Below, piece by piece: positions 3,472 through 64,000 of a stretch of 64,000 nucleotides of DNA; position 1 is the stretch's first letter, and every line of letters starts with the position of its first letter. Made by a program: the position numbers and the translations under genes. The notes under the pieces are model-generated. The model ran no database searches. It was not told where the DNA came from and worked only from the letters and a program-made list of their open reading frames with translations. Source of the stretch: Mustelus asterias (taxonomy: Eukaryota); NCBI RefSeq assembly GCF_964213995.1, contig NC_135812.1, forward strand, positions 43,834,001-43,898,000, written 5' to 3'.

Positions 3472-4317
3472 TCCTAGCCTTTGACCTGCTCTGGTAGCCA
3501 CTGTATTTATGTGGCCAGTCCAGTTCAGTTTCTGGTCATTGGTAACCCCGAGGCCAAAAGAGAAAATGCTGCAAAATCTCAGCAGTTCTGGCAGCATCTG
3601 TAAGGAGAGAAAAAAGCTGACGTTTCGAGTCCACATGAACCTTTGTCACTTTGACAAAGTGTCATGTGGACTCGAAACGTCAGCTCTTTTCTCTCCTTAC
3701 AGATGCTGCCAGACTTGCTGAGATTTTCCAGCATTTTCTCTTTTGGTTTCAGATTCCAGCATCCGCAGTAACTTGTTTTTATCCAGTTGTAACCCTGAGG
3801 ATGTTGATATAATTTTAACCACAGGGTCGAAATCCAACACAAACTGGTGAAATTTAAATTCAGTTAATTAATAAATCTGGAATATAAAGCTAGTCTCAGC
3901 GATGGTGACCATGAAATTATCAACTGTTTAACTATCACCACTTGACATTCAATAGCATTACCATTGCTGAATCCCCCAATATCAACATCCTCAGGGTTAC
4001 AACTGGATAAAAACAAGTTACTGCGGATGCTGGAATCTGAAACCAAAAGAGAAAATGCTGGAAAATCTCAGCAAGTCTGGCAGCATCTGTAAGGAGAGAA
4101 AAGAGCTGACGTTTCGAGTCCACATGACACTTTGTCAAAGTGACAAAGGTTCATGTGGACTCGAAAAGTCAGCTTTTTTCTCTCCTTACAGATGCTGCCA
4201 GAACTGCTGAGATTTTGCAGCATTTTCTCTTTTGGCCTCGGGGTTACCAATGACCAGAAACTGAACTGGACTGGCCACATAAATACAGTGGCTACCAGAG
4301 CAGGTCAAAGGCTAGGA
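3472..4317. repeat. 339-bp near-perfect inverted duplication (3472-3810 / 3979-4317), each arm itself containing a palindrome
   Basis: One mismatch seen between arms; identical ORF translations 3509..3721(+) and 4068..4280(-); 168-bp spacer. Confidence 0.95.
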
Positions 4318-57187: not shown

Positions 57188-58302
57188 TGGAGATGCCGGC
57201 GTTGGACTGGGGTAAACACAGTAAGAAGTTTAACAACACCAGGTTAAAGTCCAACAGGTTTATTTGGTAGCAAAAGCCACACAAGCTTTCGGAGCTCTTA
57301 GCCCCTTCTTCAGGTGAGTGGGAATTCTGTTCACAAACAGAGCTTATAAAGACACAGACTCAATTTACATGAATAATGGTTGGAATGCAAATACTTACAA
57401 CTAATCAAGTCTTTAAGAAACGAAACAATGTGAGTGGAGAGAGCATCAAGACAGGCTAAAAAGATGTGTATCGTCTCCAGACAAGACAGCCAGTGAAACT
57501 CTGCAGGTCCACGCAACTGTGGGAGTTACAAATAGTGTGACATGAACCCAATATCCCGGTTGAGGCCGTCCTCGTGTGTGCGGAACTTGGCTATCAGTTT
57601 CTGCTCAGCGACTCTGCGCTGTCGTGTGTCGCGAAGGCCGCCTTGGAGAACGCTTACCCGAATATCAGAGGCCGAATGCCCGTGACCGCTGAAGTGCTCC
57701 CCAACAGGAAGAGAACAGTCTTGCCTGGTTATTGTCGAGCGGTGTTCATTCATCCGTTGACGCTGCGACAACGGATGAATGAACACCGCTCGACAATCAC
57801 CAGGCAAGACTGTTCTCTTCCTGTTGGGGAGCACTTCAGCGGTCACGGGCATGCGGCCTCTGATATTCGGGTAAGCGTTCTCCAAGGCGGCCTTCGCGAC
57901 ACACGACAGCGCAGAGTCGCTGAGCAGAAACTGATAGCCAAGTTCCGCACACACGAGGACGGCCTCAACCGGGATATTGGGTTCATGTCACACTATTTGT
58001 AACTCCCACAGTTGCGTGGACCTGCAGAGTTTCACTGGCTGTCTTGTCTGGAGACAATACACATCTTTTTAGCCTGTCTTGATGCTCTCTCCACTCACAT
58101 TGTTTCGTCTCTTAAAGACTTGATTAGTTGTAAGTATTTGCATTCCAACCATTATTCATGTAAATTGAGTCTGTGTCTTTATAAGCTCTGTTTGTGAACA
58201 GAATTCCCACTCACCTGAAGGGGCTTAGAGCTCCGAAAGCTTGTGTGGCTTTTGCTACCAAATAAACCTGTTGGACTTTAACCTGGTGTTGTTAAACTTC
58301 TT
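57188..58302. mobile_element. Penelope-like element (family A) fold-back insertion, GIY-YIG endonuclease C-terminus in both arms
   Basis: Arms 57220-57759 and 57769-58305, 9-nt loop; LRQRMNEHRS...PVGEHF...RRVAEQKLIAKFRTHEDGLNRD on both strands; 12-bp direct repeat ACTATTATGAGG at 57176-57187 and 58303-58314. Confidence 0.92.
57280..57316 (-). ncRNA. Minimal hammerhead motif, intact core
   Basis: CAC-CTGAAGA-A-GGGGCT-AAG-AGCTCC-GAAA-GC-TT-GTG; the mirror copy near 58212-58245 has a 3-nt core deletion. Confidence 0.7.
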
Positions 58303-60559
58303 ACTATTATGAGGAGCAAGGGGATTATTCCCAGTGTTCTGTTCAATAGTTGTGTCTCAATTAACAATCACAAAAAAAGATTAGCTGGTCACTAGCATAT
58401 TGCTGTTCTTGGGATCTTGCTGTGCACATGTTGGCTGCCATGTTTCCTATATTATCTGTTATCACAGTTGTAATAAAGTACTTCATTGGCTGTAAAGTGC
58501 TTTGGGACATCTCTTGTCGTCAGTGCTATATAAATACACCTTTTGGATTTTTTATTATAGACCGCCAAATAAGACAGAAATTGAACAAGAGACTATCGAC
58601 AGTTCAAAAGAGATTTGTGGAAGTAATAACACAATATGTTATTACTACCCCAAATTACCTTTTAAATGGGGAATTTAAAAAATGGTTATTTAAAATGGGG
58701 AAAGGTCCTTGGAATAGACACAGAACTGTTTCCAAGTACTTTATAAATCCAAAAGGAAAAATATGGACCTGGGCTGGAATGCTCTGGCCATTTACATCCT
58801 GCTGCTGCTGCAGAGACGACAGAATTTGGCGCCCAGTCAAATCTCCATTCACTGCAGTGGGACAGGAGAATCCTGCTGATATGAACAGCCAGAGAATCCC
58901 GCCCCTGGTTTTGGATAATGAACCTGGACAAATTAGAAACTAGGTGGTGGGAAAATATCTTGATTGAAAAATAATTTGCATTTATATAACACCTTTTTCA
59001 TGACCACCAAGCATTTCAATATGCTTTACAGCTAATGAAGTATTTTCGAAGTGTAGTTATTGTTGCAATGTAGGTAACACCAGCAAATTCCCATACATGT
59101 GATAATGGTCAGATAATCTGATGAGGAGTTTGGGATAAATATTGACCAGGATACCAGGGATAATGCCCCTGTTCTTCATAAGGGGCATTATGGGCCTCTC
59201 ATCTCATCTGATCTGAAGGATGGCGGAATGCAACGCTCCCTCTATACTGCACTAATGTGCCTTAATCTTTGTGCTCAAGCCCTGGAGGTGTACTCGAACA
59301 CACAACTTTGACTCAGAAGTCAGAAAGCCGTGGCTGACATACACAAGTGATCACAAATACATATACAATAAGAAAAGCAGAATTAAAAATCAAAAAGTTG
59401 CCAAAGAGCAGATTTGAAACGTTGAAAGGGATCCCTGCTAAAATTAACTGATGAAACAATTGACAAATAAAGGGAGGAATTTTGGCAAAAAAAATTCGAA
59501 GCATCATAAAAGTGGGAAAAAGTGTTCCACGCTGGTCTCATGGGTGAGCTTGGCACCGCAATCTTCTGGCACACAGTTTTTTTAACAGCTGAGAGCTTTG
59601 TGGTGGGTGGGTGGGGGGAGAAAGGAGGAAAGAGAGAGAAAAAGAAAGAGTGGCAGAGCCTAAATACGCTGGGGAAGCTGGCTGCAGGGTGCTCGGGCGC
59701 CACTGCTCGGTTGCCCCGGTCTCCTTCTGAAACAGGAGACTTCCTCCCACTCCACCTCATCCCACAGACTTCAGTTTCCACCCCCACATCATTGGAGGCT
59801 TTGTCATTGCCTCTCCCCTCCCCATCACCAACACAGGTTGCTGGCAGCAGGGCATCAGGACCCTCCTGATGAGTCCATTGGCAGAACCCATTGCACGATC
59901 CTCCCTTCTGACCACTTCCCACACACAAGCTGCCCCGTCATTGGGCATACCCCACTCGTCATAGCCCCACCCGCACACAGGCCACATCACCTTGGCAGTG
60001 CCCTGACACACTTATGGTGCCAACTGGGCTCTCCCAGGGTGTCAACTGTGCATTGCCTGGCTATGCTCTCAGCCAGCTGGGGGCTTCAATGCCCTCCAAT
60101 CCCACCAGCGTGGCCATGGCACCTGGTTTCTGCTACATATTAGTAATTCTGCCAGTGTGACATCATGCCAGCGATTGGAAGAATTGCGAGGGTGAAGCAG
60201 CCGTGCCAGGTAAGTATTTTAAAATTGTTAATGGGCTTTGTATCCTTTGTGGGTGCGAAGCCATTCTCGCCGGCAAAACAAGGCTGGGAGGATAGCAAAT
60301 GGACTCATGTTTTTCTCCCTCGCATGCTATCTTCCTGGCTTGCATTGCTGATCGACTGGCATGGCAAGCCAGCAAGATCACGACTAAAATGTTTGACCAC
60401 CAGTGAGAACAATTTGTAATTGTGATGGGCAAGATCAAATTAAAAGCATTTCAGAATAAGAGTAAAGGGATTGAAGGAAAGGTCAGATTGCCATGGATTT
60501 GAATTTAGGAGGCAAAAGGAGGCATGTGAAAAATTAGTATCAATGAAGTGACAGAATTG

Positions 60560-62200: not shown

Positions 62201-62909
62201 TTCCAGATATTCCAGTATCCATTATGCTCAGAAAAATGAATCTCAATTCCTGAGAGAACATCTTCATTGGCACAAAAATCTAACATCCACAAGATAATAA
62301 GACGACTTTATTTTTGCTATCCTTCGCTTTTTTGTGAATTTCCATCATATTTTTGAGAAGCAAGATACATGGAACACCAGACCTTCTTTTAGGCTTTAAT
62401 TGCTGTTTATATTTATCTATAATAAAAATATTACAGTAAAACATACAATGGCCAAAATCTTCTGGCCTCATTTGCGGCTGGGATTTTCCGGTGCCGTTGA
62501 AAGTGAATAGAGGTTGGTCGGAACAGCAAATTTTCCATTCTCGCCTGCAACGGGTCCCACTGTGGACGAGACAGGAGAATCCCATCCAATATTTCTTTTA
62601 ATTGATGTTTATTAGTTTCTTTAATAATTTGCATGTTAAGCATTGCATGTTAAGCATTGCATGGTTATTTTCTTGCATTTTTATCAACTGCAGGAACTTA
62701 CTAGCCTAACATGCTAACTTTGGTTCAGTAGTAACACTGAATCAGAAGGTTGTAAATTCATTTCCTTTCCATAGACTTGAGCACATAACCTTGGCTACCA
62801 CATCAACGCAGTACTGAGATATTGCAGTCAATGATCTAGTTGATTAAACTGAGGCCCAATCTGCCTGCTTGGGCAGATGTAAAAGATCCCATGGCAGCAT
62901 TTCTAAGAT

Positions 62910-63670
62910 AACATAGAAAATAGAACATAGAACATTACAGCGCAGAACAGGCCCTTCGGCCCACGATGTTGCACCGACCAGTTAAAAAAAAACAAAAAAA
63001 AAAAAACTGTGACCCTCCAACCTAAACCAATTTCTTTTCGTCCATGAACCTATCTACGGATCTCTTAAACGCCCCCAAACTAGGCGCATTTACAACTGAT
63101 GCTGGCAGGGCATTCCAATCCCTCACCACCCTCTGGGTAAAGAACCTACCCCTGACATCGGTTCTATAACTACCCCTCCTCAATTTAAAGCCATGCCCCC
63201 TCGTGCTGGATTTCTCCATCAGAGGAAAAAGGCTATCACTATCCACCCTATCTAAACCTCTAATCATCTTATATGTTTCAATAAGATCCCCTCTTAGCCG
63301 CCGCCTTTCCAGCGAAAACAATCCCAAATCCCTCAGCCTCTCCTCATAGGATCTCCCCTCCATACCAGGCAACATCCTGGTAAACCTCCTCTGCACCCTC
63401 TCCAAAGCCTCCACATCCTTCCTGTAATGTGGGGACCAGAACTGCACACAGTACTCCAAGTGCGGCCGCACCAGAGTTGTGTACAGTTGCAACATAACGC
63501 TACGACTCCTAAATTCAATCCCCCTACCAATAAACGCCAAGACACCATATGCCTTCTTAACAACCTTATCTACTTGATTCCCAACTTTCAGGGATCTATG
63601 CACACATACACCTAGATCCCTCTGCTCCTCCACACTATTCAAAGTCCTCCCGTTAGCCCTATACTCAACA
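62910..63670 (-). mobile_element. Young 5'-truncated CR1 3' end
   Basis: Open frame EQRDLGVCVHRSLK...LVRPHLEYCVQFWSP...WNALP; (ttctatg)n tail. Confidence 0.92.
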
Positions 63671-63836
63671 CATACCATCCACCCTCACTGCTTTCCATCT
63701 CCCTCCCAGTGTTGGACAAACATCTCCCACCTTTAGCTTTGACAAAGGGTCACCCCGACCCGAAACATCAGCTCCCCCCCCTCCCCACAGACGCTGCCAG
63801 ACCCGCCGAGACCCTCCAGCACCTTTTCTTTTGGTT
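63671..63836 (+). mobile_element. PLE family B fragment with T>C hypermutation, abutting a CR1 5' truncation
   Basis: 63751-63840 aligns ungapped to 3663-3752. Confidence 0.8.
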
Positions 63837-64000
63837 ACAGCTAAGCAGAACTTCCCATCTTATCAACTGGAGTTCTACATAAAATGCCATACTATCTGCA
63901 AGACATGGCCTAGGAAAAATGTTGAATGCATAGCAAGAGCTTTCCTGCCAGCTTAGTAGGTAAGTGCACCATACTGTGTGGTCTTAAGTCATAGAAACCA

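Follow-up and report, generated by a model that had tools for sequence, protein, structure and literature searches.

Cellular RNAs fused in sense to a 5'-truncated LINE are a described class of chimeric retrocopy (PMC2104539; PMC6789731; bioRxiv 2025.02.02.635956), and same-sense LINE chimeras that arise through a template switch are known (PMC2104539; bioRxiv 2025.02.02.635956). The main text of a census of L1 chimeras uses neither the word 'editing' nor the word 'ADAR' (bioRxiv 2025.02.02.635956). In avian retroviruses, namely in the U3 region of Rous-associated virus and an inverted repeat of avian leukosis virus, about half of the adenosines were changed to G and the changes recorded in DNA by reverse transcription (PMC12925331). 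Hyperediting of intronic inverted repeats is accompanied by a depletion of G upstream and an enrichment of G downstream of the edited A (PMC4365171). Whether A-to-I edits enter the inherited genome by retrotransposition is an open point, and a 2016 review states that the role that editing by ADAR plays in how Alu elements evolve by mutation was not yet determined (PMC4982230). A survey of APOBEC-edited retrotransposon copies selected G-to-A, not A-to-G, alignments and does not mention 'ADAR' in its main text (PMC4866542).

Here we analyse a locus of the shark Mustelus asterias in the light of these systems. The window (the whole stretch of DNA analysed, 64,000 nucleotides) contains a young CR1 insertion that carries an edited intron copy at its 5' end, and we consider it probable that the two were united when the CR1 reverse transcriptase switched to an ADAR-edited RNA in the course of a single germ-line insertion. 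With an unedited source, its edited copy and an empty site each available for comparison, the direction, strand, duplex and timing of the event can be read directly. An initial annotation, made from the letters of the window, had described the locus as a genomically fixed, hyperedited copy of a Penelope-like element (PLE) transcript fused to a CR1 5' end.

A CR1-type LINE is joined to a copy of a host intron

The insertion has the following parts, in window positions.

62912..63673, minus strand: young, unedited, 5'-truncated CR1-type LINE comprising the end of the reverse transcriptase (RT) frame, the 3' UTR and the tail (762 bp)
62912..62934, minus strand: 3' tail repeats of the CR1-type LINE, a tail shared with 20 of the 20 family copies shown; the left edge of the whole insertion is at 62911/62912
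63673, no strand: CR1-to-intron joint, at which one base (T) is shared and none is added; the stem tip of the source hairpin is 4 nt away
63673..63836, minus strand: hyperedited arm of the source's fold-back Penelope-like repeat, with 28 A>G changes (minus strand) at 63676-63823
63837..63846, no strand: copied target-site duplication of the source element, ACAGCTAAGC, which includes CTAAG
63847..64000, continuing to window-equivalent 64858 (G000:C12:43898858), minus strand: unedited copy of an intron of a C19orf44 homolog, with 0 mismatches to contig C26 up to 2589816

The carrier has a non-LTR RT frame, a short tandem 3' tail and a 5' truncation, and a longer copy of its family encodes RVT_1 (E=1e-24), with jockey-like RTs of chordates as the nearest Atlas cluster. 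The RT frame and tail would make it a CR1-type LINE, a label that we presume to be right from the assignment in the initial annotation and from the familiar type of the tail. A pattern search with a 33-mer from the CR1 5' end found 10,749 exact copies in the genome. The window CR1 is 97.4-98.8% identical to all 20 copies compared and differs from the commonest letter of each column by three substitutions in 764 columns, none of them T>C, and by a longer A run. These 20 copies match the window through 63673 and then diverge, and the match to the source begins at 63673; the joint thus has one shared T and no extra bases.

Comparison of 63671-63845 with the shark's own genome gave one near full-length match, at 84% identity, at locus L002 on contig C26 (40 of 1142 candidates scored). 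This match (G000:C26:2588631) extends beyond the repeat, and all 28 differences from the window segment in 228 nt are T>C. Ungapped alignment continues over 1186 bp, pairing 63673 to window-equivalent 64858 with C26:2588631-2589816 and reaching 858 bp past the window end. The 28 mismatches all fall at 63676-63823, and the following 1035 bp contain none. The span of 63671-63840 assigned to the retrocopy in the initial annotation was therefore too narrow.

The source lies within a gene. A Pfam scan covering 134 of the 179 candidate frames around it identified DUF4614 exons on the minus strand, and the protein encoded beside it is 100% identical to P0001, labelled by NCBI as a C19orf44 homolog of the shark M. 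asterias. On the minus strand, the coding exons of this gene span C26:2596535-2577284, and a 2.35-kb intron between exons ending near C26:2590454 and starting near 2588101 contains the whole of the copied stretch. With the gene on the minus strand, a plus-strand T>C amounts to an A>G in the pre-mRNA, which has the same sense as the CR1. The fusion at the 5' truncation of a minus-strand CR1, and the template polarity proposed for it, are borne out. The template itself was not a PLE transcript, as had been thought, but the host intron in sense, which is Penelope-like only in the first 164 nt of the copied stretch. The window copy is the derived one, because the source has the family T and both copies of its own duplication, whereas in the window a single arm and a single flank are present.

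About 8 kb upstream of the C19orf44 homolog, a 1334-aa frame (L034:4257-8258, G000:C26) shows the Gypsy-like order protease, RT, RNase H, integrase.

The edited arm derives from a fold-back Penelope-like repeat

On C26, the repeat forms a fold-back: this older Penelope-like insertion has two arms in inverted orientation, L002 1233-1406 and 1505-1668, separated by 98 nt, and the 10-bp direct repeat ACAGCTAAGC flanks it at L002 1211 and 1665. The motif CTAAG, which had been offered as a possible target-site duplication of the chimera, is present at 62903-62907 and 63841-63845, but the second occurrence lies inside this 10-bp repeat of the source, and the insert ends about 1 kb further on.

Folding of the source RNA predicts a single long duplex that pairs 26 of the 28 changed adenosines, and within the gene span the hyperedited arm is the sole part of the copied stretch that has an inverted partner. 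With G standing in for I, the duplex energy is -283.1 versus -283.6 kcal/mol, an uninformative difference. An Rfam search of the source hairpin returned sub-threshold hairpin and U2 matches only, with hammerhead absent.

Long copies of the repeat family (family B) run on into RT-like frames (RVT_1 E=2e-4, below the curated cut-off, in one of three pieces), for which the Atlas clusters are DUF8422/RVT_1 at 0.96. In one locus, L124, a stretch with CxxC and YCI-YI (GIY-YIG-like), recognized by eye, lies upstream of the repeat; Pfam gave no match to either of its two pieces. Both orientations of the repeat are present at 18 of 30 unselected family B loci (three locus pairs overlap), and L124 and L127 have a tandem repeat-ORF order. 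A motif resembling the hammerhead core is visible in family B, with what we take to be the U3-A8 variant, and Rfam found no hammerhead match. Partial tandem and inverted 5'-truncated layouts have been described for PLEs (PMC8557442), as have minimal hammerhead motifs (PMC6155905); read from the sequence, the layouts of family B fit Penelope-like elements, and its hammerhead-like core may do so as well.

Two further fold-back structures are present in the window. The family B copy at 3472-4317, which is unedited, is a nested palindrome with 339-nt arms that are 100% complementary and 168 nt apart, each arm containing a 193-nt hairpin and ~80 nt of duplicated flank. At 57220-58305 there is a young 1.09-kb fold-back of another family, 98% self-complementary, that is a strong candidate editing substrate.

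The changes in the arm have the signature of RNA editing

Of the 65 T in the arm, 28 are changed to C, against 0 of 307 elsewhere in the copy (Fisher p=2e-24); at 27 unselected loci with 47 arms, the background of the family amounts to 47 T>C among 1701 T. The changes read as A>G, the host gene and the CR1 all fall on one strand. Measured against the commonest letter of each family column, the strand-specific excess that the initial annotation had proposed to test for is found in the window copy (T>C at 22 of 50 compared sites), and the source keeps the family T throughout (0 of 50). The more distant comparison on which that annotation was built, of 63751-63840 with the family B copy at 3663-3752, was reproduced: the alignment is ungapped, and 19 of its 24 differences are T>C, the others being two G>C and one each of G>A, C>T and T>A.

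Sorted by 5' neighbour, the edited fractions in the window copy are U 5/8, A 15/30, C 3/9 and G 5/18; by 3' neighbour they are G 11/20, U 6/10, A 11/30 and C 0/5. These biases have the ADAR-like direction but are not significant in this copy alone (5' p=0.17; 3' p=0.28), so that the earlier claim of 5'-G avoidance survives as a direction (5/18 against 23/47) and not as a significant effect. Inosine templates C in reverse transcription, and edits in the pre-mRNA thus become T>C on the plus strand. We conclude that this segment was very probably copied from an ADAR-edited RNA template. The core of the initial proposal, ADAR-type hyperediting of a fold-back RNA followed by reverse transcription, is accordingly upheld by the uniformity of the differences from the source and by the predicted pairing of the changed adenosines.

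Could the same pattern have been produced in DNA, by duplication of the C26 stretch and then clustered mutation or conversion from a C-rich subfamily? Polymerase eta favours A after U or A, and U or A precedes 20 of the 28 changed adenosines, a context that would suit this enzyme too. However, all 28 changes are one transition on one strand, end at the edge of the duplex and follow the gene strand, and, the locus itself aside, the closest sequence to the edited form among the candidates scored is its unedited source. A multi-copy C-rich subfamily, which the initial annotation had named as one possible refutation of its reading, is contradicted by a junction that is single-copy in the assembly and by a direct source that is unedited and otherwise identical. 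We regard a DNA-level origin as very improbable.

CR1 and intron copy probably entered as one insertion

Public run X5 comes from a related organism that is 6-8% diverged in the listed pieces. One of its contigs joins 62911 to the equivalent of 64857 with a single letter between them and so represents the empty site, and the run also contains a counterpart of the C26 source. Because the related species has the empty site, CR1 and the intron copy are likely to have come in as one insertion, two nested events at one base being formally possible. At its right end, the intron copy meets the target at 64858 with two shared bases (GG). The event is very recent, given 0 differences in 1035 bp compared with 6-8% to the related species.

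No target-site duplication around the whole insertion is seen at the empty site, as read from a species 6-8% diverged, which also removes CTAAG as a repeat bracketing both parts. Target-site duplications of the CR1 clade peak at 3-5 bp, and blunt and truncated sites occur too (PMC4245944). The missing duplication thus makes the locus a poorer fit to a LINE chimeric retrocopy, although the route is still possible because blunt and truncated sites are known for LINEs.

The read evidence consists of assembled contigs of public runs, of which X1 and X2 are from one sample and X3 and X4 are too shallow for the genotyping of other samples. Contigs of X1 span both outer joints with 0 differences. The X1 depth (16.2 in the left flank, 29.6 in the shared stretch) and a left contig that runs unbroken into the CR1 tail suggest that the insertion is homozygous in this sample, which may be the assembled individual. 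The description of the copy as 'fixed' is supported to the extent of this probable homozygosity in one sample and no further.

Inside the arm, X1/X2 contigs at 92% likeness cover 63680-63709 at depth 8-41 with no other letters, at a place where the unedited source cannot fit, and back the edited letters at 63684-63707. Positions 63775-63823 are not separable from other copies in the X1/X2 contigs. Contigs at 92% likeness stack to depth 600-890 over 63780-63809, which implies that partly C-rich 30-mers exist elsewhere and is a point in favour of the DNA-level origin considered above. X1 has no cover at 63720-63729, and X3 and X4 have none at 63680-63729. The shared contig of X2 begins at 63824, one base past the last edit, as expected of a fork between two versions of the sequence. 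Separately, an X1/X2 contig of ~242 nt with unrelated flanks matches 63781-63822 with three other letters and is possibly another edited copy.

An assembly or base-calling artefact would be compatible with the finding that no read contig in the tables shown spans the whole edited arm, and clustered mismatches of one type can be sequencing error, as seen for G-to-A in trace data (PMC2873906). Such an error would not track the hairpin and the gene strand, however, and the error-free crossing of the outer joints, the X2 fork after the last edit and the empty site in the related species all speak against it. We therefore find an artefact scarcely credible.

Possible routes of joining the edited intron RNA to CR1

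The favoured reading, reverse transcription by the CR1 enzyme with a switch of template, involves the following steps. Pre-mRNA of the C19orf44 homolog would fold into a predicted duplex of ~165 bp, in which ADAR would deaminate 43% of the arm adenosines. Target-primed reverse transcription would start at the CR1 tail and copy 762 nt, after which the CR1 RT may jump, by way of the one shared base, onto the intron RNA at the hairpin tip, where cleavage of the loop may have provided a 3' end. Copying ended 1186 nt on, inside the intron, and the end was joined to the target at two shared bases without duplication. End-to-end jumps of LINE reverse transcriptases are known from work on R2. The source stem ends at L002 1505, which corresponds to window position 63677, and the position of the joint, 4 nt from this stem tip, suggests that cleavage within the loop had produced the RNA end.

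We take a template switch to be the probable joining step, with due reserve: with only one shared base, it is not separable at the joint from ligation. In the latter case, the cut and edited intron fragment would have been ligated to a CR1 RNA fragment before reverse transcription by an RtcB-like activity, as for U6/L1, where ligation comes before formation of the chimera (PMC6789731). A joint without extra bases and a stem-tip position suited to a nuclease-made end agree with this. Ligation of this kind requires a 2',3'-cyclic phosphate and a 5'-OH, neither of which is indicated here, and the one shared base slightly favours a polymerase jump (it would arise in 1 in 4 cases by chance). Ligation of the two RNAs therefore appears unlikely.

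The two sequences might instead have been neighbours from the start, if a CR1 formerly occupied the hairpin loop on C26 in an allele that has been lost or is absent in this individual. An edited read-through pre-mRNA, primed at the internal tail, would then give rise to the insertion by 5' transduction. Such an allele would account for the shared sense, for the clean joint and for an edited upstream arm with no need of a jump, and intronic LINEs that use the host promoter have been described (bioRxiv 2025.02.02.635956). Against it, the C26 source has no CR1 at the cargo locus in this assembly, and a junction probe that allowed edited and unedited letters and two mismatches has the window as its sole match in the assembly. 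In none of the contigs listed from four runs (two of one sample, two shallow) is CR1 joined to the unedited letters. The idea also requires a second young insertion exactly at the stem tip together with priming at an internal tail, and we judge it to have a small chance of being correct.

The absence of a duplication and the short shared bases at both ends would also suit the addition of edited intron RNA or its cDNA during repair of the CR1 5' end, by a host polymerase or a second priming event, and L2/CR1-type insertions often have additional sequence at the 5' end (PMC4245944). The orientation described for second-strand priming is the opposite one (bioRxiv 2025.02.02.635956), whereas here both parts are in sense, and 1186 error-free bases through a long duplex would be more in keeping with a LINE RT. 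Capture during repair is improbable on these grounds. The lost-allele, ligation and repair explanations all retain RNA editing.

Other copies with the signature of editing

Exact matches to an unedited family 30-mer number 10,046 genome-wide. The same 30-mer with seven T>C changes has four at up to two mismatches, namely the window, L003, L045 and L046, and a control probe with seven G>A changes in this 30-mer has none genome-wide. A second T>C probe, for which the control was the reversed pattern only, added L106 and L107. The probe counts are lower bounds, since the second probe missed the window copy and L003. The genome-wide search for A>G-clustered copies that the initial annotation had envisaged thus yielded five further single copies with a one-strand T>C signature.

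L003, G000:C17:16467540-16470650, 1911-1470: fold-back family B copy with its own flanking repeat; same-strand T>C 13/52 and 9/19, and 0/24 in a third short piece
L106, G000:C9, match at 30402299-30402328: fold-back copy within a SINE; T>C 15/34 and 7/18; flanking repeat of 8-12 bp
L107, G000:C18, match at 70986367-70986396: fold-back copy; T>C 13/40 against 0/23 in the other arm; 13-bp flanking repeat
L045, G000:C23:63442050-63445077, about 1365-1590: T>C-rich fold-back copy; T>C 8/38 and 5/14
L046, G000:C26:13725517-13728544: arm rich in T>C, from a related but older family; 10/26, with some T>C in the adjoining SINE

Opposite-strand A>G changes in these five copies number 0-3 per arm, and the probes did not select for their second arms. 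When sites under the probes and the two unedited pieces are excluded, 6 of 70 A preceded by G are changed, compared with 40 of 108 after other neighbours (p=2e-5), the direction described for ADAR (PMC4365171); the bias of the 3' neighbour gives p=0.08. L045 and L046 are more diverged and have a weaker signal than the other edited copies. L045 interrupts a retroelement whose RVT_1 frame is on the opposite strand, where the changes read A>G, and no source for L046 was found among the 40 of 11,309 candidates scored. The asymmetry between the arms of L107 may reflect two RNA templates.

The six edited copies, including that of the window, have favoured sites in common, but their site sets differ and their flanks are unrelated, which argues further against DNA-level duplication and conversion. 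Flanking repeats of 8-13 bp are found on L003, L106 and L107. Because these repeats are their own, the three copies are likely to have moved as Penelope-like elements from edited fold-back RNA. L003 was also considered as a second CR1 chimera and rejected: the neighbouring LINE is only 73% like the window CR1, the repeat carries a duplication of its own, and its 801-bp spacer has no source elsewhere among the 40 of 90 candidates scored.

Implications and comparison with known systems

At this locus, an inherited DNA copy of an unspliced host intron carries the likely editing pattern of a single molecule. The comparison also provides a recipe for a genome-wide count, which is to seek young duplicates that differ from their source by one-strand A>G in inverted repeats alone. 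The animal is probably unaffected, and four edited probe matches against 10,046 unedited ones make for a rate that seems low. We suggest, tentatively and at somewhat less than even confidence, that this shark's genome contains a fossil record of A-to-I editing in the germ line, in which hyperedited hairpin RNAs were written back by more than one reverse transcriptase: by that of CR1 through capture of the intron, and in the self-mobilized fold-back Penelope-like copies that have their own duplications. If this is true, editing of both arms would show that the RNA template can already contain the inverted 5' arm of Penelope insertions, and the stem-tip joint would show that cut, edited hairpins provide 3' ends for template jumps.

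We found no description of a germ-line retrocopy that contains a hyperedited host intron in the literature searched, which lay mostly outside subscription journals and excluded supplements. The shark copy resembles U6/L1 and other mammalian RNA/L1 chimeras, and WEIRD/MGL in Magnaporthe, in which a sense cargo and a truncated LINE likewise form one insertion; it differs from LINE chimeras in its CR1-type carrier, its unspliced-intron cargo, its lack of a target-site duplication and its hyperediting. APOBEC-edited vertebrate retrotransposon copies similarly preserve a deaminase cluster in a single genomic copy (PMC4866542; PMC2873906), but there the changes are G-to-A and come from editing of cDNA. 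Hyperediting of the Alu type shares the intronic inverted repeats and the clustered A>G (PMC4365171) and is known from RNA only, whereas the shark case is in DNA. In the A-to-G hypermutation of avian retroviruses, too, an edited inverted repeat is reverse-transcribed into DNA; the avian case concerns exogenous viral RNA in infected cells, and the shark case an intron of a host pre-mRNA in an assembled genome, where the unedited source is available for comparison. LINE chimeras and A-to-G hypermutation in retroviral DNA are thus both known, and the intron retrocopy is a variant of these known kinds.
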